Positions 1-8,544 of a DNA stretch of 8,544 nt are shown piece by piece. Numbering within the stretch: the stretch's first letter is position 1; each line of letters starts with the position of its first letter. This DNA comes from a virus (lineage: Duplodnaviria > Heunggongvirae > Uroviricota > Caudoviricetes). The stretch spans positions 1-8,544 of the IMG/VR virus record IMGVR_UViG_648276648_000007. One strand, given 5' to 3'. A program made the translations under genes and the position numbers. The notes beneath the pieces were generated by a model. The model ran no database searches and had not been told where the DNA came from. It saw only the letters and a list, made by a program, of their open reading frames with translations.

Positions 1-429
1 CATAACAAACCCATTAAATTCACAATTATTCATGGCGTATCCGCCAGCTGAGGAATAAGTAGTTATCACAACTCGTGAGGCTAATTCATCGGTACTGCCT
101 CCAGATCGGCGAAAGACTATAGGATACCACTTACCGCTTACTGCATTTGCAGGCGCTGAAAAAGTGTATTTTCGCATCCCTTTTTTATTGTCTATTTCGC
201 TTTTGCTGTAAACGTCCAGATCTTTAGGAGTCAACGTAATGTCAGCCGAACCATCGAACCTGACGCCATTAATGTTTATGGCTGTTTTTAATTTCGTCGC
301 GGTGTCGGCGTTCCCTGTCAGCGCCCCGGTGATCCCGCCGTTGAAAGTCTGGCGCGCACTCCATGTGTTAGCCGTGCTCAACAGGGGGATCTTTTCACCG
401 CTGGTACCGAGTTCTCTTAAACCAAGGTT
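1..429 (-). CDS. Phage tail-fibre C-terminal variable cassette (Sv'-type), partial; 143 codons from the crossover site to the window edge, no start codon of its own
   Basis: Minus-strand translation from 429 down to 1 has no stop and reads NLGLRELGTSGEKIPLLSTANTWSARQTFNGGITGALTGNADTATKLKTAININGVRFDGSADITLTPKDLDVYSKSEIDNKKG..., a pattern I recognise from P1 S / Mu S / P2 H-type tail fibres. It begins at the inversion site beside the invertase. Absent from the ORF track because it has no ATG and leaves the window. Confidence 0.8.
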
Positions 430-437
430 TAGGATTG
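412..437. other. Site-specific inversion crossover site (cix/gix-like): 12-bp imperfect inverted repeats around a 2-bp core
   Basis: TTCTCTTAAACC-AA-GGTTTAGGATTG. The inner 6 bp of each arm (TAAACC / GGTTTA) are a perfect inverted repeat, 8 of 12 arm positions match, and the centre is an AA dinucleotide, as in Gin/Cin/Hin/Pin sites. It lies at the junction of the tail-fibre cassette and the invertase gene. Confidence 0.65.
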
Positions 438-989
438 AAATGATGACGCAGGAAACTTTTTATAAAGCGTGGAAACAGCAACATCATAGATGATTGCAAC
501 CTGCTTACGGGGGATGCCATTCTCCAGCAATCGACGCATTTGCTGCCATGTTTCTTCTTGGTATTTAGGCCGACGGCCTCCTATTCGACCTTCTGCGCGA
601 GCTGCATCAAGTCCAGCGCGTGTACGTTCAACGATAAGCTCACGTTCCATTTCTGCCAGCGCCCCCATTACGTGAAAGAAAAAGCGCCCCATTGGTGTAC
701 TGGTGTCGATGGAGTCAGTGAGACTCCGGAAGTTAATTCCTCTGTCACGCAGCTCCTCCACCAGCACAACCAAGTGACGCATGCTGCGCCCAAGACGATC
801 TAACTTCCATACGACCAGGGTGTCACCTCTGGAAAGCATACGCAAAACCTTTCTTAGCCCAGGGCGTTCAGCCTTTTTGCCGCTCGCCTTATCCTCAAAA
901 ATTAGCTCACATCCTGCGCTTTCAAGGGCATTTCGTTGTAAAGCAGTGTTTTGTTCATTTGTTGATACGCGTACATAGCCTATTAGCAT
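429..989 (-). CDS. cin: Serine recombinase, DNA invertase of the Cin/Gin/Pin/Hin family (186 aa)
   Basis: The ORF translation begins MLIGYVRVSTNEQNTALQRNAL and contains VVWKLDRLGRSMRHL, GINFRSLTDSIDTSTPMGRFFFHVMGALAEMERELI and C-terminal IPRKQVAIIYDVAVSTLYKKF, near-identical in pattern to Cin/Gin/Pin/Hin. Catalytic Ser is S9 in YVRVST. The symbol cin is chosen from the P1-like neighbourhood; pin or gin orthology cannot be excluded without alignment. Confidence 0.95.
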   Translation of the reverse strand: MLIGYVRVSTNEQNTALQRNALESAGCELIFEDKASGKKAERPGLRKVLRMLSRGDTLVVWKLDRLGRSMRHLVVLVEELRDRGINFRSLTDSIDTSTPMGRFFFHVMGALAEMERELIVERTRAGLDAARAEGRIGGRRPKYQEETWQQMRRLLENGIPRKQVAIIYDVAVSTLYKKFPASSFQS

Positions 990-1116
990 ATTTTCTGCTC
1001 ACTATCGTTATTTATAGCAAGCTGCGGATTTTAATTAACAAAAACCAGTATGTGTGGAAATCACAAAGTACATACCGTTTCCCAATGATATTTAATTCAC
1101 TATTAAGGAAATAGTT
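990..1116. promoter_or_regulatory. Divergent intergenic promoter region between the invertase gene (leftward) and the lyd/dar-type operon (rightward)
   Basis: 127 bp AT-rich spacer between two divergently oriented start codons; AGGA sits 7 nt upstream of the ATG at 1117. Exact -10/-35 elements were not assigned. Confidence 0.4.
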
Positions 1117-1398
1117 ATGTGTGATTTCACAATAATGCTCCTCTCCATCCTTGGCGGGGTGCATTCGTTTCTGAATGGGGTTCGTGAAAAACGTTACGAA
1201 GCGTCATGCAGGCAATTGATGGCCGAGTGTATTGCTGCCGTACTTGCAGGCTTTATAGGCATGTATTTCGCGGAATATAAGGGTATGGATGAAAGTCTTC
1301 AGAATTGCGTGACTATTATTTGCAGCATCAATAACAGGCTCATTCTTGAAAAGTTACAAAGGATTATCGATTCGCACCTCAATAGAAATGCCTCTTAA
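1117..1398 (+). CDS. Small two-TM membrane protein, holin-like (LydC-like position), 93 aa
   Basis: Two hydrophobic segments (IMLLSILGGVHSFL and IAAVLAGFIGMYF) followed by a charged C-terminal tail; AGGA RBS 7 nt upstream; same architecture as the next ORF. Confidence 0.6.
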   Translation: MCDFTIMLLSILGGVHSFLNGVREKRYEASCRQLMAECIAAVLAGFIGMYFAEYKGMDESLQNCVTIICSINNRLILEKLQRIIDSHLNRNAS

Positions 1399-1465
1399 GC
1401 AACAAATGACCGGTTGAGAAGTTACTTTGCATACCATTACCTCCTGACAACGTAGGAGGGAACTT

Positions 1466-1795
1466 GTGCTTGACACACAGGAATTAGCTCCAGTTGCTAT
1501 TGCGCTCCTGCTTTCAGTAATTGGTGGGATAGGCACGTTCCTGATGGATGTCCGAGACGGTCGCCAGTCTGGCAATTTGTTAGGATTGGTTACGGAGATC
1601 TTTGTTGCAGTGACAGCTGGCGCGGTGGCGTACCTATTGGGGCAACACGAGGGCTGGGAGTTATCAATTACGTACTTAATGGTAACGATAGCCAGCAATA
1701 ACGGTCATGAGGTGATTTCAGGGATGAAACGAGTGAATATCGATAGCATTCTGAATGTTCTTACAAGTTTGGTGAAAAAGGGAGGCGGGAAATGA
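1466..1795 (+). CDS. lydA: Two-TM holin-like protein (LydA-type), 109 aa, GTG start
   Basis: Strong RBS AGGAGG at 1454-1459, 6 nt before GTG at 1466. Two TM segments (LAPVAIALLLSVIGGIGTFLMDV and IFVAVTAGAVAYLLG) separated by a short charged loop. The symbol rests on position next to cin and on size, as I recall the P1 order cin-lydC-lydA-lydB. Confidence 0.6.
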   Translation: MLDTQELAPVAIALLLSVIGGIGTFLMDVRDGRQSGNLLGLVTEIFVAVTAGAVAYLLGQHEGWELSITYLMVTIASNNGHEVISGMKRVNIDSILNVLTSLVKKGGGK

Positions 1796-2235
1796 TTGGC
1801 TGGGGTGTATGCGTTCTTGCGTTAGCCTTAGCCGATCGCTATTTGCTAAAACGCAAGGACATCACGCACTTAGAACTTGGTGATGTGGAAATTAAACCGG
1901 GTTTCATCCGGGTGCCGTTCAAATACCGGTCTAAATTCCCGTTTTTGCGCGGCGCAACGGTCAGATATTGGATCCGCGATGTTCAGAAGCCGACGACAGT
2001 GATTGAAGGCGAACAACGTTGTCTGACGTCGGCTGAACAGGGCGAAAACAGTGAATGGTTGTACATACCCACTGAATATATGGGTAAAGGAGAGCGACTG
2101 TGGCATTTCAACGTCATGGTTACGCATGGCGACTCGTTCATTAACCCGTTGTATCGGATTTTCCCTGTTACTCAGCAAATCCGCAGAAGTTACGTAATAA
2201 ATCTCGCACAGGATGTGTCAGATGACGAAAAATAA
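1792..2235 (+). CDS. lydB: 147-aa protein with N-terminal hydrophobic anchor or signal sequence, candidate antiholin (LydB-like)
   Basis: ATG at 1792 overlaps the stop of the previous gene (ATGA coupling); GGAGG RBS at 1781-1785; N-terminus MIGWGVCVLALALA is hydrophobic. Assignment is by synteny and size only. Confidence 0.5.
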   Translation: MIGWGVCVLALALADRYLLKRKDITHLELGDVEIKPGFIRVPFKYRSKFPFLRGATVRYWIRDVQKPTTVIEGEQRCLTSAEQGENSEWLYIPTEYMGKGERLWHFNVMVTHGDSFINPLYRIFPVTQQIRRSYVINLAQDVSDDEK

Positions 2236-2824
2236 GTATGCAACGGTCGATTTTGACCAGGTTAATGAAAAGGGGCTGAAATCCCTTATCGCGGCGATCA
2301 ATAAAACCGGGGTTACGGTAATTGAGGTTGACTCCAGCAACCGCGCAACAACGAAAGATGGCGTTAAAGTTAAAACCGCAAAGCTGGTTCTTAACGACGG
2401 ACAAATTCTTGCCATACAGGTAAACGATACTGGCGATATATCGTCTGTGAAGCTGAATGGAAAAGCTATTCCTAACGCTCAGTCGCCGGATATCAAGACG
2501 CTTGGTACCGTCATGGGGCAAGCGGCCAGCAAAAACTCCGCAAAATTCCAGAAATCACTGATCGCCAAAGCGAAACGTGTTGCCAATCCGGTAGACAAGA
2601 AACCGGCAGTAAAATCCAACTTTCAGCGCCTGCAAGAGGCAAAACAGCGGAATGCTCAGGTGGTTGCCGCTTATAAGTCCGCGCAGAATTCGGTGTCTTT
2701 CAATCAACAGCAGATCACTGATTTGCGGGCGAAGCTGGATACGGAGACGGGCCGACTCAATAACGAAAAGGCACGGAATGGCGAACTCAAACGTCGTCTT
2801 AAGCAACTGAAAGCAGGAAATTAA
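2213..2824 (+). CDS. hdf: Hdf-like protein (homolog of DarA fragment), about 200 aa
   Basis: Overlaps the end of the upstream gene. Carries the block ...LNDGQILAIQV...KNSAKFQK followed by a Lys/Gln-rich coiled-coil tail, which recurs in the next, larger gene. An alternative start at ATG 2222 has better spacing to AGGA at 2209-2212. Confidence 0.7.
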   Translation: MCQMTKNKYATVDFDQVNEKGLKSLIAAINKTGVTVIEVDSSNRATTKDGVKVKTAKLVLNDGQILAIQVNDTGDISSVKLNGKAIPNAQSPDIKTLGTVMGQAASKNSAKFQKSLIAKAKRVANPVDKKPAVKSNFQRLQEAKQRNAQVVAAYKSAQNSVSFNQQQITDLRAKLDTETGRLNNEKARNGELKRRLKQLKAGN

Positions 2825-2825
2825 C

Positions 2826-4745
2826 ATGGAACAGTTCAATATCAATAAAGGGGTGACGATCAAGCCTGGGCTTGACGTACTTCCCCCGCCAGTGACTGAT
2901 GATGAATATCGCGCATTAATGGCCGGAGAGGACCGCTATCTGATGACGGAATCCAACACCCTGGAGGAAATCGAGGCTACGTTCTTCTATGACACGCCGA
3001 TCCACTGGTGTGCTACGGATTTACTGGAGGCGATTAGTTCTACTCGTTTGCAGTTACACCGGACCATGCAGGCATTTGTCCGGGCATTGAACCAGAAGCT
3101 GAATGGTACCGGAATCTCTGCGGGGAGTGATAAAACGGGGGATGTGGCCCAGAGCGGCGCGCGAGCGATCGGCGGCGCTGAAATTGGCCGGGCACGTAAC
3201 GTTAACGGGCTGCCGGTCCTGCCAGCCATTATCCCGCTCAGTGATGGTCAGACTATCAGCATTCTGTTTCATAGCCCGACAGCGGAAAACCGGATCACCA
3301 ATAGCGATACGCTGGTTGCTTTCCAGTTCTTACTGAATAAAAAAGACGTTACTCACACCGTTGCTCCGATGAGTGGACGTGATATGACGCTGGCGCAGGT
3401 CACCATGAAACTTGCCAACCTTGCAGAGAAAAACTCGGCAAAATTCCAGCGTGCGCAGAAGAAGAAAAAAGCCCTGGTTGATGAAATAACCCAACTACAG
3501 GCTGACAGTGACCAGAAAGAGGATGCCATGAGCGACCTCGCGGATCAGGTGGCAGCGGTAGAAGGCCAGAAGGCAGATCTGGAGCAGAAAATTAACGCAG
3601 TTGCTTCGGAAGCGGATTCTCTTTATCAAGAAAATGAGCGTTTGCAGGCGGAGATTGATCAGCTCAATCGCACTGGTGGGCGCGATACCATTGCTCCAGC
3701 GGGGATGACTGGTGGGCACTCTCTCGCGCTGACGGATCGCCTTGCCAGTATCAAAAATCGTATGCATATGGACGGGGAAGCGACGCTCAGTAATGGTGCA
3801 TTAATGAAGCAATTCATTGGGGACGGCGAAGGGTATATCCAGTTAACCGATCCGGATGGCAGCGTGTACATGATCAAGGCTAAATCCATACAGGGTGTGG
3901 ACATGACAGATGCGATCGGCAAGCTGTTTAAAGCCTATAAAGCGGGTAATGTATCGGAATATCTGGTCCAACCAGAAGAACCTAAACCGGAAAACGTCGA
4001 ACCTGAACCAGTGGAGGATACCGGCAGCTCTTCGCCTGAACCAGAAGTCTCTGTAGGCGCATATCGATATGCCCTGCAAATGCGTCCGGCGGCCCCTGGC
4101 GCGATACCTGAAGGTAACAAAGCAATTCTGCCGCGCCCTGATAAAGGTGACCCGTATTATGAATACGCGCGCTACGGCATTGTTACTTACGATACCCCGC
4201 TTTCTGATCAGCAAATGAGTGAGTACGACCTGAAGTTATTGCCTCGCGAGGATTCTTTCGACTTCCTGGCGAAGACACTTACTAATGGTCCGTTTGGCAA
4301 ATATGCACAAAAAGCTCTGGAGCTGGCCACCAGCTCACCAGACGAGTTCCGCGTAATGCTGAAAACTCAGTTTCAAAAAACTTTCCCCAATATTGCGTTT
4401 CCGGGGGGCGCTGGCACCGAGAAAATGGTGCAGAGCATGATCAATGCATTGCAGGCCGAAGTCGGTGAGATTACTCAGCCAGAACCGGCCCCGGCACAGC
4501 CTGATGAAACGGTTAGCGAAGCAGATGCAGAGGCTAATAAAGCCATTGAATATCTCAATAGCGTGATGGATATGCAAAGCACTGACATGGCGGAGATCCG
4601 TAATGCCCGGGGTAATGCCCGGGAAGCGATTGCAGCCCTTCAGGCTGCCGGGCGTTTTGAGGAAAACGAAGAGCTGGTTAATGGCGCTGCTCGCCACCTG
4701 GCTGATCTGCTGGTAGCAATCCAGAAAGCGGGGGTAGTGGCATGA
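2826..4745 (+). CDS. darA: DarA-like capsid-associated anti-restriction protein, 639 aa
   Basis: Starts 1 nt after the hdf-like stop with AGGA 7 nt upstream. Multi-domain: N-terminal region, the Hdf-shared block around KNSAKFQR (nt 3429-3449), a long coiled coil (about nt 3450-3670) and two Pro/Glu-rich linkers. Size and position match what I recall for P1 DarA. Confidence 0.7.
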   Translation: MEQFNINKGVTIKPGLDVLPPPVTDDEYRALMAGEDRYLMTESNTLEEIEATFFYDTPIHWCATDLLEAISSTRLQLHRTMQAFVRALNQKLNGTGISAGSDKTGDVAQSGARAIGGAEIGRARNVNGLPVLPAIIPLSDGQTISILFHSPTAENRITNSDTLVAFQFLLNKKDVTHTVAPMSGRDMTLAQVTMKLANLAEKNSAKFQRAQKKKKALVDEITQLQADSDQKEDAMSDLADQVAAVEGQKADLEQKINAVASEADSLYQENERLQAEIDQLNRTGGRDTIAPAGMTGGHSLALTDRLASIKNRMHMDGEATLSNGALMKQFIGDGEGYIQLTDPDGSVYMIKAKSIQGVDMTDAIGKLFKAYKAGNVSEYLVQPEEPKPENVEPEPVEDTGSSSPEPEVSVGAYRYALQMRPAAPGAIPEGNKAILPRPDKGDPYYEYARYGIVTYDTPLSDQQMSEYDLKLLPREDSFDFLAKTLTNGPFGKYAQKALELATSSPDEFRVMLKTQFQKTFPNIAFPGGAGTEKMVQSMINALQAEVGEITQPEPAPAQPDETVSEADAEANKAIEYLNSVMDMQSTDMAEIRNARGNAREAIAALQAAGRFEENEELVNGAARHLADLLVAIQKAGVVA

Positions 4746-5107
4746 CACTATCAGCTATTGAGTTAATGGATCTCAGCGATAAGTTGGATGCTCTGATGTC
4801 CAAAGCGGCGACCGCGAGTGGCATGGAGTTGCTGGATATCAGCGATGAAATTGACCAGATCATGCAACAGATGGGGTACGGCGCATCCGGCAGCGGTAGT
4901 GGCGAGGAAAAACAACCTTCGGTGCATGATGGTGTGCCAAAACTGGTTGCTGATTTCCTGGCTGATAAATTCGTCGATCAGAGCACCGATGCATTTATCG
5001 GTACGTTGCAGGACTTAAGTCAATATGTTGGCACATACATCGACCTGGACCAGGTTAAACAGCACACGGCGGCATGGATAGCCGCCAACATTAAAGAGGC
5101 GGTATAA
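4742..5107 (+). CDS. ddrA: Small acidic protein, DdrA-like, 121 aa
   Basis: ATGA start/stop overlap with the darA-like gene; Asp/Glu-rich with a GASGSGSGEE linker; size and position match my recollection of P1 ddrA. Confidence 0.6.
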   Translation: MTLSAIELMDLSDKLDALMSKAATASGMELLDISDEIDQIMQQMGYGASGSGSGEEKQPSVHDGVPKLVADFLADKFVDQSTDAFIGTLQDLSQYVGTYIDLDQVKQHTAAWIAANIKEAV

Positions 5108-5119
5108 GGCGTAACAGGG

Positions 5120-6808
5120 ATGAGTTTAAACGATCAGATAGTTATGGCCACCAGCAGCGGATACAACGGTGTTGCGCCATATACCAGCTTGCTATTACAT
5201 CGGGCATCCGGCATCAAAGACATTATTCATCTGATCAGGCTGCTTTCCCGAACAGATCCCCAGGATGAACAGCTTGTACAAGTGCTTGCGCATTTTGTTC
5301 GAATGCCTGTTGCCGACGTGAATAAATGGTGCCGATTATTCGGTATCAGCAATTCGTTACTTCGCGGCTTGTTAAATCACGCATCCTCCCTTGGGCGCGA
5401 TGGCTTTGACGAGATAGCGCAGGCGATAAAAAACGGAGATATGCCACCAGCTATTGACTGGTTTTCCATTCGCCCAACCAGGGTGAAAGCATTCCTTAGC
5501 GCGGCGCATTCGGCATCACCATTGGCAGAAATGGTTCAGAGGTTGTCGCTCATATTCACAGACCATACCGCGTTGGGTGATCTGACTCTGGACGAGATGA
5601 AAGAAGCCTCCATTCAGTGGGCCGATCAACAAAATGAGGTTAACTCAGACTTCTTGCCAGCATTCAGGAAGGCCGTTATTAAAGCGGATGATGCCCGTGG
5701 AATTCTGAAGGCATTTAAGGCATTGCAAAGTCGGGTTAATAAACATGTCGGTGATATCGATGGGGTAACGGCGGAAGGCAGGGATATCCTTAAAGAGCAC
5801 GGCATAACGCCAGAGTTTATTGATGAGATCAGGACTGATATGCAGCGTGAGGTCGTATCGTCCCTGCAAATTGTAGCCAGAGCGTTGGCGGATGCTAATC
5901 CGAAGAGTGCGGCCATTGTTAACCGGGTTATTGGTGATATTGAAGCATCGGAGGGCATGGGGGCGCTGAAACTCTTCCTTTCGCGAGCGTTTAATCCTAA
6001 CGGCAATATTCTCCCTGGCATTATTGGTGAGGCTAAAAGGTATGTCAGTGAAGAAGAACTTGAGCAGCTTGACCAACTACTTAAGCGATTCTCATATAAC
6101 CCGCAGACACGCTGGCAAATGAATCAGCGAAGAATGGGTTCGGTCCACGAGAAAGTGTTATCTGCCATGAACAGTGCGATCGCAAACTCATCCGTATCTG
6201 AAGAAAAAGCTCTTGAGTGGGCCGACTCTTTTATCACGGAAGAAGTGGAAGAAGCCCGCGCTGGACAGAATGGTGGGATAGACCTGCGCAAGGAACTTGC
6301 TGATATTTATCGCCTGACCGGCGGTAAAATTTCGACCTTATCAAAGGTGGTTCACCACCAGGGAAGGGCATATGCAAATCTTAATGGTGTTGTTGCTGTC
6401 AATTTGAACGATGAAAATGCAAGTGCACTGTGGCACGAGCTGGGTCATCATCTTGAGTACAGTAACCCTGGTTTGTTAGAGAAAGCCCGGTCATTCCTGA
6501 AGGCCAATGTTGAAGGGGATAAGCCATCTTTCGTTAATATCGGTGGGCGTGGCAAGCCTGAATGGTGCTTCAGATCTCGATTGAGTAATATTTATATGGC
6601 GAAGGTATACCCGCCAGCCTCAGTAAGTAACACCGGGAAAATTCGGCAGAAATCACCGACTATTTCCAAAACGTCAGCAACGGAAGTATTCTCTATGGCT
6701 CTTCAGTTGTATCATGACAAAGAGGCCGCTGCCGCATCACTGATGAATGGTGACGGATTGCTGGAACTGTTATTAGGTGTGGCAAAGGAGCTAAATAATG
6801 CAGATTAA
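5120..6808 (+). CDS. Uncharacterised 562-aa protein with a single HExxH zincin-type motif (HELGH, residues 439-443); occupies the ddrB position
   Basis: Long clean ORF in the operon's codon context; WHELGHHLEY is encoded at nt 6431-6460; the rest is largely helical and charged. I cannot confirm similarity to P1 DdrB from memory, and I recall DdrB as considerably larger. Confidence 0.85.
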   Translation: MSLNDQIVMATSSGYNGVAPYTSLLLHRASGIKDIIHLIRLLSRTDPQDEQLVQVLAHFVRMPVADVNKWCRLFGISNSLLRGLLNHASSLGRDGFDEIAQAIKNGDMPPAIDWFSIRPTRVKAFLSAAHSASPLAEMVQRLSLIFTDHTALGDLTLDEMKEASIQWADQQNEVNSDFLPAFRKAVIKADDARGILKAFKALQSRVNKHVGDIDGVTAEGRDILKEHGITPEFIDEIRTDMQREVVSSLQIVARALADANPKSAAIVNRVIGDIEASEGMGALKLFLSRAFNPNGNILPGIIGEAKRYVSEEELEQLDQLLKRFSYNPQTRWQMNQRRMGSVHEKVLSAMNSAIANSSVSEEKALEWADSFITEEVEEARAGQNGGIDLRKELADIYRLTGGKISTLSKVVHHQGRAYANLNGVVAVNLNDENASALWHELGHHLEYSNPGLLEKARSFLKANVEGDKPSFVNIGGRGKPEWCFRSRLSNIYMAKVYPPASVSNTGKIRQKSPTISKTSATEVFSMALQLYHDKEAAAASLMNGDGLLELLLGVAKELNNAD

Positions 6809-7109
6809 AATCGCAGCGCCATTAGGCGGAGATGCCATTATCGAATTTGATGATAATGAAGAAGTTTCCGGGCGTTTAAGCATTATCTCCGGTGACATTA
6901 CCGAGGACATGATCGCTGAAGCCATAGCTGGGGCAAATCCCAATAGCTATATGGGATTCGTTAACACCCTTGATGCTCCCGCAAGTGATGTTCTCCGAAC
7001 GCTGCATCTTTACGCTGGCTGGTTTGTTGATTGGCCAGCAGTAGATGGTGGCGATGATGACGACGACGATGATGATTTTGGTGATCATGTAGACCAGATC
7101 GTATATTAA
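6798..7109 (+). CDS. Small, very acidic protein, 103 aa, with a C-terminal run of eight Asp
   Basis: AGGAG RBS at 6786-6790, 7 nt before the ATG; overlaps the end of the 562-aa gene by 11 nt; eight consecutive Asp codons at 7053-7076; roughly 25 acidic against 3 Lys/Arg residues. Confidence 0.8.
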   Translation: MQIKIAAPLGGDAIIEFDDNEEVSGRLSIISGDITEDMIAEAIAGANPNSYMGFVNTLDAPASDVLRTLHLYAGWFVDWPAVDGGDDDDDDDDFGDHVDQIVY

Positions 7110-7175
7110 CTCCCTGATTGTGCAAAAATAATCTGTTCTGATATGTTAATTGTGTACTTAAAGTAAACGCGTAGT

Positions 7176-7203
7176 GGCTTGCTTTAGGTTATGGAAGCAA
7201 GCC
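7176..7203 (+). terminator. Perfect 9-bp stem / 10-nt loop hairpin 67 nt downstream of the operon's last stop codon; possible terminator
   Basis: GGCTTGCTT-taggttatgg-AAGCAAGCC. It is not followed by a clean T-run, so intrinsic terminator function is uncertain. Confidence 0.3.
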
Positions 7204-7722
7204 GTTACCTAATATGTTAGATCAAAAAAAATTAATTTTTGCGTTTCGCTCACCACATATTGAACACTTTAGTCGATCTTTTAATTCTTCCAGAGTCAAT
7301 CCTGAAGCTACATATTGTTTAATATCTCTTCTTTATTGCATATTCAGAGGGTAAAGATATACACATACTAAAATGAATTAGCTTAGCTCGTTATTAATCA
7401 GGATTCGATGAGACCGCTCCATTTTAGGGAATAACATTTATAACTAAAACACATCGTCTTTAACTCTCACAATATAGATTCAATTTAATACCCAATCGGC
7501 AGTAATTAATTTGATTCTAATTTTTAAGTAGATTTCAAGTCTACATCCATTAAAGCCCTGTTAATTAACAGGCTATCTATTTTTGACAGTTATTATTTTT
7601 GTGATAATTTAATTGTTTGTCTTTTGTGCTTATTTTTGATTGTTTTTTGATCTATTTTGTCAATTTTTATTCTGTGAATTGAGTTTTTTCTAATAGTCCA
7701 TTGGGTTTTCAAGGCTATTATT

Positions 7723-7738
7723 TGTGATTTTGATCACA
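7723..7738. promoter_or_regulatory. Consensus CRP (cAMP receptor protein) binding site
   Basis: TGTGA-TTTTGA-TCACA matches the TGTGA-N6-TCACA consensus exactly, with arms extendable to 7 bp (TTTGTGA / TCACAAA, 7721-7740). It lies about 120 bp upstream of the porin ATG, near a candidate -35 TTGAAA (7767-7772) and -10 ATAAAC (7789-7794). Confidence 0.5.
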
Positions 7739-7850
7739 AAAATACCTTGATTTTTATTTGCAAAACTTGAAACACGAATCCAAAAAAGATAAACATTTGT
7801 CCGCAGTGACTTCTTTTCTACTGAAAAGTTCAATCTAAAGGGCAAAAAAA

Positions 7851-8192
7851 ATGAAAAAAATCACAGTGGCACTCTCTGCGGTTGCAGCATCTGTCCTGAT
7901 GGCAATGTCTGCGCAAGCAGCTGAAATCTACAACAAAGACGGTAATAAACTGGATCTGTACGGCAAAGTTAACGCAGAACATTACTTCTCTTCTTCAGCT
8001 AGTGATGACGGAGATAAGACTTATGCTCGTCTGGGATTCAAAGGTGAAACTCAGATTAATGACCAGTTAACCGGTTTTGGTCAGTGGGAGTACGAATTTA
8101 AAGGTAACCGTACTGAATCTGAGGGCTCTGATAAAGATAAAACTCGTCTTGCATTTGCTGGCCTCCGTTTTGCTGATTATGGTTCAATCGAC
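7851..8192 (+). pseudogene. nmpC: General porin of the NmpC/OmpD/Lc (OmpC/OmpF superfamily) type; 5' fragment of 114 codons, interrupted by IS26
   Basis: Signal peptide [23 protein letters not shown], then the classic mature porin N-terminus [17 protein letters not shown]...[26 protein letters not shown]...[17 protein letters not shown]. The frame then runs 8 codons into IS26 (GTVANSRW) and stops. The symbol is tentative: the signal peptide most resembles NmpC/Lc as I remember them. Confidence 0.85.
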
Positions 8193-8206
8193 GGCACTGT
8201 TGCAAA
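8193..8206. repeat. IS26 14-bp terminal inverted repeat (IRL)
   Basis: GGCACTGTTGCAAA at the exact point where the porin reading frame is broken. Confidence 0.9.
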
Positions 8207-8255
8207 TAGTCGGTGGTGATAAACTTATCATCCCCTTTTGCTGATGGAGCTGCAC

Positions 8256-8544
8256 ATGAACCCATTCAAAGGCCGGCATTTTCAGCGTGACATCATTCTG
8301 TGGGCCGTACGCTGGTACTGCAAATACGGCATCAGTTACCGTGAGCTGCAGGAGATGCTGGCTGAACGCGGAGTGAATGTCGATCACTCCACGATTTACC
8401 GCTGGGTTCAGCGTTATGCGCCTGAAATGGAAAAACGGCTGCGCTGGTACTGGCGTAACCCTTCCGATCTTTGCCCGTGGCACATGGATGAAACCTACGT
8501 GAAGGTCAATGGCCGCTGGGCGTATCTGTACCGGCCGTCGACAG
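8256..8544 (+). CDS. tnpA: IS26 transposase Tnp26 (DDE, IS6 family), N-terminal 96 codons, truncated by the window edge
   Basis: Translation MNPFKGRHFQRDIILWAVRWYCKYGISYRELQEMLAERGVNVDHSTIYRWVQRYAPEMEKRLRWYWRNPSDLCPWHMDETYVKVNGRWAYLYR matches Tnp26. The last codons read PST rather than the AVDS I recall (see findings). Confidence 0.9.
   Translation, partial: MNPFKGRHFQRDIILWAVRWYCKYGISYRELQEMLAERGVNVDHSTIYRWVQRYAPEMEKRLRWYWRNPSDLCPWHMDETYVKVNGRWAYLYRPST

Follow-up and report, generated by a model that had tools for sequence, protein, structure and literature searches.

The 8,544-nucleotide stretch of phage DNA analysed here (hereafter the window) raises the question of whether the tightly packed genes that follow a DNA invertase at positions 1117-7109 are the lysis and anti-restriction genes of phage P1, and of what has become of the distal part of the set. 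Sequence comparison makes it very probable that this region corresponds to P1 lydC and the P1 'dar' late operon, adjoining the cin invertase gene, and the element that hosts it is, with equal confidence, judged to be a P1-like phage-plasmid. The locus is already known, and it is an ordinary P1 operon apart from a ddrB gene that lacks its front half. The P1 dar operon has reportedly been under study since 1987, with a genetic dissection in 2017 and a DarA-Hdf structure in 2026.

Identity and layout of the locus

BLAST over the whole locus gave 97.5-98.7% DNA identity to P1, P7 and JL22. The nine proteins from Cin to Hxr were 96.7-100% identical to their P1 counterparts over the aligned residues, a level that marks the ORFs of the locus as true genes and not chance frames. 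The genes lydA-lydB-hdf-darA-ddrA-ddrB-hxr follow one another on one strand, 3' of cin and lydC, as they do in the annotated genomes of P1, P7 and JL22, and the P1 records (lydC to hxr in NC_005856; AJ000741, 'Bacteriophage P1 darA operon') share the same genes, order and overlaps with the window. The first-pass annotation had recognised P1 cin, lydC, lydA, lydB, hdf, darA and ddrA from gene order and size, and the protein identities bear this out; the 203-aa and 639-aa products on which that recognition hinged are 98.0% and 97.3% identical to Hdf and DarA, respectively. One might still suppose that the likeness to P1 is superficial, limited to sizes and order in the genes of an unrelated element. 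We found no evidence for this and regard it as vanishingly improbable, since it is refuted by nucleotide identity of about 98% over 7 kb together with the protein identities.

A Shine-Dalgarno-like motif lies 5' of every start in the locus. The genes meet in ATGA at 1792-1795 and 4742-4745, overlap at 2213-2235 and 6798-6808 and are separated by a 1-nt gap at 2825, exactly as had been described beforehand, and the ORF map likewise agreed with the earlier ORF positions; ddrA and ddrB are separated by a 12-nt gap, with no overlap. Rfam and tRNA scans found no RNA genes. The proposal of a single eight-gene transcription unit is not upheld. The late promoter LPdar stands between lydC and lydA, and PMC9025707 treats lydC as a monocistronic early operon of its own, so that lydC is set apart from the seven late genes lydA to hxr.

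Invertible segment, lysis genes and late promoter

The upstream part of the window contains the following features:

1-424, minus strand: end of the invertible C segment and start of the alternative tail-fibre variable part Sv' (P1 annotation, offset 1264)
415-434, minus strand: cixL, the Cin recombination site, crossover at 424/425 (P1 annotation 1679-1698; TCTTAAACCAAGGTTTAGGA present)
429-989, minus strand: cin, DNA invertase, 186 aa (98.9% identical to P1 Cin; annotated in P1, P7 and JL22)
1117-1398, plus strand: lydC, accessory holin, 93 aa (97.8% identical to P1 LydC; Pfam Phage_holin_3_3 match)
1419-1437, plus strand: LPdar late promoter (annotated in NC_005856 and AJ000741)
1466-1795, plus strand: lydA, main holin, 109 aa, GTG start (100% identical to P1 LydA; PF16083 and PHROG holin)
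1792-2235, plus strand: lydB, antagonist of the LydA holin, 147 aa (98.6% identical to P1 LydB)

Both cin and cixL have the position and orientation that they have in P1. The minus-strand Sv' frame stays open up to the window edge and continues beyond it; at bases 1-236 the Sv' tail-fibre segment differs from that of P1, and these bases match neither P1 nor JL22 and are 100% identical to plasmid CP063732.1. Region 985-1125, the cin-lydC spacer 5' of lydC, is identical to P1, whereas that of P7 differs, so the spacer of the window is P1-type. The C1 operator consensus, predicted 5' of lydC in P7, had no match at up to three mismatches. Positions 1399-1471, which hold the 67-nt lydC-lydA gap with LPdar, are base-for-base those of P1, with a -22 box (AAGTTACTT) at 1419-1427 and a -10 box (TACCAT) at 1432-1437.

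The lysis roles given above are those of PMC9025707. LydA scored 30.1 bits against PF16083 (cut-off 28.4) and LydB 344 bits against the Pfam family LydB (PF16084), so that the expected pair is in place, a Phage_holin_3_3 holin gene running into a LydB-family gene at the ATGA overlap at 1792-1795. The description of the 147-aa LydB as an anchored protein is doubtful, since PMC9025707 gives LydB without a predicted transmembrane domain.

Head proteins, terminator and the mechanism expected from P1

Downstream of the lysis genes, and setting ddrB aside for the moment, the features are:

2213-2824, plus strand: hdf, internal head protein and DarA partner, 203 aa (98.0% identical to P1 Hdf)
2826-4745, plus strand: darA, internal head protein, defence against restriction, 639 aa (97.3% identical to P1 DarA)
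4742-5107, plus strand: ddrA, 121 aa (96.7% identical to P1 DdrA; PHROG 'DdrA-like anti-restriction protein')
6798-7109, plus strand: hxr, 103 aa, acidic poly-Asp tail (97.1% identical to P1 Hxr)
7171-7208, plus strand: hairpin with a conserved 15-bp stem, inside the darA-operon terminator of AJ000741 (8032-8105)

Hdf matches Pfam DarA_N and the PHROG 'Hdf-like antirestriction'; an alternative ATG at 2222, the start used in P7 and JL22, would give a protein of 200 aa. DarA carries the Pfam domains DarA_N (144.5 bits) and DarA_C (63.8 bits), scores 1095.8 bits against the NCBIfam equivalog NF052326 anti_RE_DarA (cut-off 350) and matches end to end the P1 DarA structure, PDB 9ukm_I ('Defense against restriction protein A'). 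Hxr had no Pfam or NCBIfam match. The hairpin, found by alignment with AJ000741 and by folding (-20.2 kcal/mol, z = -2.84), lies in an annotated operon terminator that a consensus terminator scan did not flag because no T-run follows the stem.

Given the near-identity to P1 (97-98%), transcription, packaging and anti-restriction may be expected to follow the P1 scheme. LydC would act as an accessory holin made from its own early promoter, and LPdar would drive one late transcript through lydA, lydB, hdf, darA, ddrA, ddrB and hxr that ends near the 7171-7208 hairpin. [quoted passage not shown] In P1, 55 DarA-Hdf pairs line the inner capsid and touch the DNA; heads that have been emptied no longer contain them, and the order of incorporation is Hdf and DarA, then DdrA, DdrB, DarB and Ulx (PMC12810830). 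The P1 virion proteome includes DdrB, DdrA, DarA and Hdf (PMC9024508), and Dar protection works in cis against type I systems (PMC12707154). Two genes required for EcoB/EcoK protection, darB and ulx, are situated beyond the 8.5-kb window. A plasmid with the same short ddrB allele, NZ_CP148408.1, encodes a 2255-aa N-6 DNA methylase of the size of DarB and then a 146-aa ORF, adjoining the portal gene.

Flanks and state of the element

Beyond the hairpin, the window ends with two further features:

7851-8192, plus strand: 5' part of a porin gene (nmpC/ompD/ompC-like, P7/JL22-type), cut after codon 114
8193-8544, plus strand: IS26 end (terminal inverted repeat GGCACTGTTGCAAA from 8193)

The porin gene stands outside the dar operon. 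Past about 7330 P1 has isaB and IS1, whereas the window follows P7 and JL22 with the porin gene. Two plasmids, pVPS18EC0505-3 (CP063732.1, IncY, from veal) and NZ_CP122864.1 (from a pig ETEC), are 100% identical to window positions 1-8192, short ddrB included; their porin gene is intact, whereas that of the window is cut by IS26 at 8193. The plasmids with this full identity are about 95-100 kb long and non-mobilizable, and one of them is typed as IncY (CP063732.1). In a related short-allele plasmid, P1 head, tail, portal and lysozyme genes surround the locus.

Since IS26 lies 2 kb downstream, the element has been rearranged, and it is conceivable that it is a defective plasmid remnant which no longer makes virions and carries the dar and lysis genes as cargo without expressing them. 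The truncation of the porin gene at 8193 would fit such a remnant, as would a database search in which the exact porin::IS26 junction occurred in none of the 5000 matches listed. We nevertheless consider this unlikely. Every one of the nine genes, cin through hxr, is intact and near-identical to its equivalent in viable phages, and the sequences around the promoter and the terminator are conserved as well. P1 itself lacks the porin gene, which is accessory, and IS26-bearing P1-like phage-plasmids, JL22 among them, have been catalogued as phages. A P1-like phage-plasmid remains our preferred reading of the element.

A ddrB allele without its ParB-like half

The distal part of the operon had been noted as diverging from P1. 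The difference is real, but it is a deletion in ddrB and not sequence divergence:

5120-6808, plus strand: ddrB short allele, 562 aa (BLAST breakpoints, base-by-base comparison, PHROG 2299)
5156-5162, plus strand: deletion junction, 1299 bp in frame relative to P1, P7 and JL22

The short DdrB consists of the first 12 residues, two residues (SG) and the equivalent of P1 DdrB from residue 448 onward, so that 433 codons (about P1 residues 13-447) of the 995-aa P1 protein are missing. The deletion takes the ParB-like domain together with some 280 more residues, and with them the antisense iddB ORF; the Pfam ddrB-ParB domain, which scores 135 bits in P1 DdrB, is absent, and the window does not encode a full-length two-module DdrB of 995 aa such as that of P1. 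The C-terminal module is kept, with HELGH (HExxH) at residue 439 and a match to positions 442-995 (of 995) of the PHROG 2299 profile. No direct repeats were found flanking the deletion endpoints in P1, and slippage between repeats is therefore unsupported.

P1 DdrB is the prototype of the polyvalent proteins, combining a ParB-like domain with a C-terminal zincin-like metallopeptidase (Iyer et al. 2017, PMC5512222). Of these two domains the window protein has only the C-terminal one, with no ParB effector attached; it would thus be a predicted self-processing peptidase without its predicted cargo. Searches for a peptidase family in the C-module gave none in Pfam (E up to 10) or NCBIfam, and only a weak LPD5 match (17.6 bits, below the cut-off), so that the label 'metallopeptidase' depends on the HELGH motif and the prediction of Iyer et al. 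In an exhaustive representative search, about 220 residues around HELGH were found again as the C-terminal part of proteins of 724-1378 aa that contain ParB. A ParB-less homologue of 500 aa (P0010, 34% identity) may be a stand-alone C-module, but equally may be a truncated gene call. A PDB sequence search with the short DdrB returned nothing at E up to 1, and a single-sequence AlphaFold2 model (mean pLDDT 42, pTM 0.24) was unusable.

Working variant or remnant

At least 36 of 483 P1-like plasmids (21 + 15; about 7%) share this ddrB junction. The seven short alleles examined, which between them represent E. coli, E. fergusonii and E. albertii, all have it in identical form, with frames and HELGH intact in 7/7. 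We put the odds at about even that the short DdrB is still functional as opposed to an inert remnant. One plausible reading, which we hold with somewhat less than even confidence, is that the short form of this two-module polyvalent head protein is maintained as a 'C-module-only' variant. This reading is favoured by a deletion that stays precisely in frame and leaves the native start, the ribosome-binding site and the hxr overlap in place, and by the seven diverged copies, which carry up to 60 substitutions across three Escherichia species with no stop or frameshift.

The position of the breakpoint also argues against decay. Escherichia phage D6 (NC_050154) has the same plan of cin, lydA, lydB, hdf, darA and ddrA, then a ddrB-like gene, although it has no lydC or hxr at that position and identity is only about 60%. 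Its DdrB is the opposite half, a 454-aa protein with the N-module only, whose end falls within one or two residues of the point where the window protein restarts. DdrB is found as N+C in P1, P7 and JK004, as N only in D6 and as C only in about 7% of P1-like plasmids, and the variants break at one boundary, a Gly/Ser-rich linker at about P1 residue 446-448.

The opposing explanation, that the operon is that of P1 but the short ddrB is a dead remnant, comes close to an even chance. The phage would then behave as a ddrB mutant, with lysis, head-size control and DarA-dependent functions kept and EcoB/EcoK-type protection weakened, because DdrB is listed as aiding the addition of DarB to the capsid. 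Several observations are in line with this. NCBI PGAP flags the short ddrB as a pseudogene ('incomplete; missing N-terminus'), the PLSDB gene tables for another 6 plasmids do not list the gene, and one short allele (L011) is broken by a 1254-bp insertion. In long alleles the deleted part is more strongly conserved (dN/dS 0.04-0.09) than the retained part (0.16-0.21), and the packaged effector is predicted to be the N-terminal ParB fragment (Iyer et al., PMC5512222). Moreover, P1 does not need ddrB for viability (PMC10695390), and in most D6-type elements the gene is 'missing' (bioRxiv 10.1101/2025.09.12.675607).

Pairwise dN/dS among the short alleles was 0.11-0.22 in 20 of 21 pairs, the remaining pair having only three substitutions. 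These values are confounded because short alleles do not cluster apart from long ones, and the variation was possibly imported from long alleles; the window allele differs at 9 sites from the long JL22 allele and at 17-55 sites from the other short alleles. With short and long alleles intermixed by recombination, dN/dS was rejected as a decisive test of short-DdrB function.

Conclusion

To conclude, the identification in itself matters little, as the operon is well studied and this copy is about 98% identical, but it makes a P1-like phage-plasmid the very probable source of the window. Elements of this class spread resistance genes, and here IS26 adjoins the locus. Annotation pipelines treat the short ddrB inconsistently, either as a pseudogene or as a 425-aa fragment. 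The only research value here lies in this ParB-less allele, which recurs in three Escherichia species and could be used as a ready-made natural mutant to assign functions to the two halves of DdrB. If the reading as a C-module-only variant is true, the two halves of DdrB act independently and the short allele is a natural separation-of-function mutant, which would show which half supports DarB loading and which is the injected effector.

A P1-type lyd/dar locus

Megablast against phage records aligns 83-93% of the window to the Escherichia phages JL22, P7 and P1, and identity over those lengths is 97.5-98.7%. In the JL22, P7 and P1 records the annotated order is cin, lydC, lydA, lydB, hdf (odaE), darA, ddrA (odaC), ddrB (prt) and hxr (odaA), and the title of record AJ000741 is "Bacteriophage P1 darA operon". 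The gene map of the first-pass annotation is reproduced by the ORF list, which gives plus-strand frames of 93, 109, 147, 203, 639, 121, 562 and 103 aa in 1117-7109.

Features of the window
429-989, minus strand: cin
5120-6808, plus strand: short ddrB
7851-8192: truncated porin of the P7/JL22 type (nmpC/ompD/ompC-like), cut after codon 114 by IS26
8193-8544: IS26, with its terminal repeat GGCACTGTTGCAAA starting at 8193

The 203-aa and 639-aa proteins are 98.0% and 97.3% identical to Hdf and DarA of P1, and the other products, too, are close to their P1 counterparts (Cin 98.9%, LydC 97.8%, LydA 100%, LydB 98.6%, DdrA 96.7%, Hxr 97.1%, and DdrB 97.3% over 562 aligned residues). Pfam detects Phage_holin_3_3 in both holins, the LydB family at 344 bits, DarA_N in Hdf, and DarA_N with DarA_C in DarA, while PHROGs matches are to Hdf-like, DdrA-like and "released from the phage upon host infection" families. 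DarA also scores 1095.8 bits against the NCBIfam equivalog anti_RE_DarA (cut-off 350) and is matched end to end by PDB chain 9ukm_I (P1 DarA). Since sequence identity to P1, P7 and JL22 and these independent profile and PDB matches agree, the earlier reading of the locus as lyd/dar is correct. The locus, about 98% identical to P1, belongs to a system that is already known and has been studied in depth.

In P1, the principal holin is LydA, which LydB antagonises; LydC is an accessory holin with an effect on when lysis occurs, and no transmembrane domain is predicted for LydB (PMC9025707). The N-terminus of LydB in the window (1792-2235), MIGWGVCVLALALA, is hydrophobic yet short; the protein had been termed "anchored". 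Hdf and DarA enter the head first and the other head-packaged proteins need both, as PMC12810830 relates from Piya et al. 2017. Cryo-EM of P1 has resolved 55 pairs of DarA and Hdf inside the capsid; they sit at the penton-hexon junctions of its inner surface, touch DNA and are missing in emptied heads. Protection in P1 acts in cis only, for packaged DNA (PMC12707154). Given their near-identity, the window proteins would act as in P1, with lysis by Lyd and cis protection by packaged Dar. Hxr (6798-7109), which the P1 annotation lists as a possible Xre-like repressor, finishes with nine consecutive Asp at its C-terminus and had no match in Pfam and NCBIfam searches; the repressor label looks weakly founded.

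Transcriptional organization

The gene junctions proposed from the first reading were recovered: ATGA occurs at 1792-1795 and 4742-4745, neighbouring genes overlap at 2213-2235 and at 6798-6808, and one nucleotide lies between 2824 and 2826. All starts in 1117-7109 are preceded by Shine-Dalgarno-like motifs, and two junctions are uncoupled: 67 nt separate the 93-aa gene from the 109-aa gene, and 12 nt lie ahead of the 562-aa gene. In the P1 and AJ000741 annotations the gap from lydC to lydA carries the late promoter LPdar; P1 and the window have the same sequence over 1399-1471, so that the LPdar -22 box falls at 1419-1427 and its -10 box at 1432-1437. The C1 operator consensus is absent, and the cin-lydC spacer is the same as in P1 and differs from that of P7. 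The terminator annotated in AJ000741 lies 30-103 nt past hxr, and the hairpin within it is kept in the window (7171-7208, 15-bp stem, -20.2 kcal/mol, z = -2.84). Together, the promoter between lydC and lydA and the hairpin downstream of hxr argue for a layout of lydC by itself followed by a seven-gene late operon. The single transcription unit first proposed would thus hold for those seven genes and not for lydC, which LPdar sets apart.

Surroundings of the locus

In the related short-allele plasmid NZ_CP148408.1, one flank carries tail-fibre genes and the C segment, and the other a porin, ssb, lysozyme, a head-processing protease, portal and a 2255-aa N-6 DNA methylase (DarB-sized); this arrangement is the P1 layout. 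Two plasmids, CP063732.1 (typed IncY) and NZ_CP122864.1, have 100% identity over window 1-8192 and, unlike the window, an uncut porin. The exact porin::IS26 junction was found in no record among the matches listed, in a search saturated by IS26. Window 1-236, identical to CP063732.1, is the tail-fibre Sv' variable segment within the invertible C segment; it is unlike those of P1, P7 and JL22, which suggests a different host-range cassette. In two P1-like plasmids of E. albertii, NZ_CP043269.1 (L010) and NZ_CP034164.1 (L011), gldA (glycerol / 1,2-propanediol dehydrogenase) is inserted within the late dar operon, between ddrA and short ddrB on the opposite strand (L010 1210-2313, L011 452-1555).

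A deletion removing the ParB half of DdrB

The distal part of the locus had been said to diverge from the reference; the difference is real, and its nature is a deletion. The BLAST alignment to P1 breaks at window 5156/5162, equivalent to P1 locus 6420/7725, and base-by-base comparison revealed a 1299-bp in-frame deletion within ddrB, with no direct repeats flanking the breakpoints in P1. In the short DdrB, M1-S12 is followed by S-G and then by the sequence from the equivalent of P1 Y448 onward, and the end of its gene overlaps hxr by 11 nt as in P1. The ddrB-ParB Pfam domain, found in P1 DdrB at residues 36-167 (135 bits) and missing from the window protein, falls in the deleted stretch, as does the antisense ORF iddB. 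The retained part matches positions 442-995 of 995 in PHROG 2299 and keeps HELGH at residue 439.

In tblastn searches with P1 DdrB, Cronobacter phage JK004 had a homologue of the whole protein (59.5% identity), phage D6 matched only at residues ~2-475, and many phages, among them those of Acinetobacter, Aeromonas and Pseudoalteromonas, matched only at ~13-450. The 454-aa D6 protein ends "...FEPTSVG", aligned to P1 "...FESVSGGS", at most one or two residues from the start of the part retained in the window (YNGVAPY...). Moreover, in an exhaustive representative search, the last ~220 residues around HELGH recurred in ParB-less proteins as well as in ParB-containing proteins of 724-1378 aa, in the latter at the C-terminus. 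These breakpoints and the recurrence of the C-terminal module indicate that the deletion takes out exactly one module at a natural boundary. According to Iyer et al., the C-terminal metallopeptidase of P1 DdrB cleaves the protein before packaging, and the packaged part is predicted to be the ParB fragment; the recurrence of the HELGH region fits their "polyvalent protein" picture (PMC5512222). The D6 gene, orf25 (5992-7356 of the D6 record), encodes the N-terminal (ParB) module alone, which probably explains why, in a survey (bioRxiv 10.1101/2025.09.12.675607), most D6-type elements are reported to have ddrB "missing".

Spread and status of the short allele

The short allele is not a one-off. 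A junction-specific 81-nt probe matched 21 PLSDB plasmids and a second probe, from a more diverged E. albertii copy, 15 further plasmids, so that at least 36 of the 483 plasmids bearing the ddrA-ddrB region carry it; among complete E. coli genomes it was present in 9 of 480 carriers. Its annotation is inconsistent across records (window 5120-6808; 20198-21859 in record L004 and 8531-9808 in record L013): PGAP labels it a pseudogene with a missing N-terminus, in CP063732.1 the annotated "ddrB domain protein" begins at an internal start and has just 425 aa, and the PLSDB gene tables omit it. The 562-aa frame is intact, with the native start codon and ribosome-binding site kept.

In a comparison of seven short alleles (E. 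coli, E. fergusonii and E. albertii), all share the same junction and keep HELGH, and over up to 60 substitutions every frame is free of internal stops and of frameshifts. Pairwise dN/dS was 0.11-0.22 in 20 of the 21 pairs, the remaining pair differing by three substitutions only; for long alleles it was 0.16-0.21 in the part that short alleles retain and 0.04-0.09 in the deleted part. The short alleles do not cluster together, the window allele differing at 9 sites from the long JL22 allele and at 17-55 from other short alleles. Through recombination, long alleles could therefore pass "selected" variation to short ones, and damage could even be repaired. In the E. albertii plasmid NZ_CP034164.1, short ddrB is interrupted by a 1254-bp insertion (L011 2880-4133), probably an insertion sequence, whose flanks overlap by 3 nt (query 1019-1021). 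A working variant and an inert remnant are roughly equally likely for the short DdrB. The ddrB allele without ParB is a minor side finding, which might be followed up.
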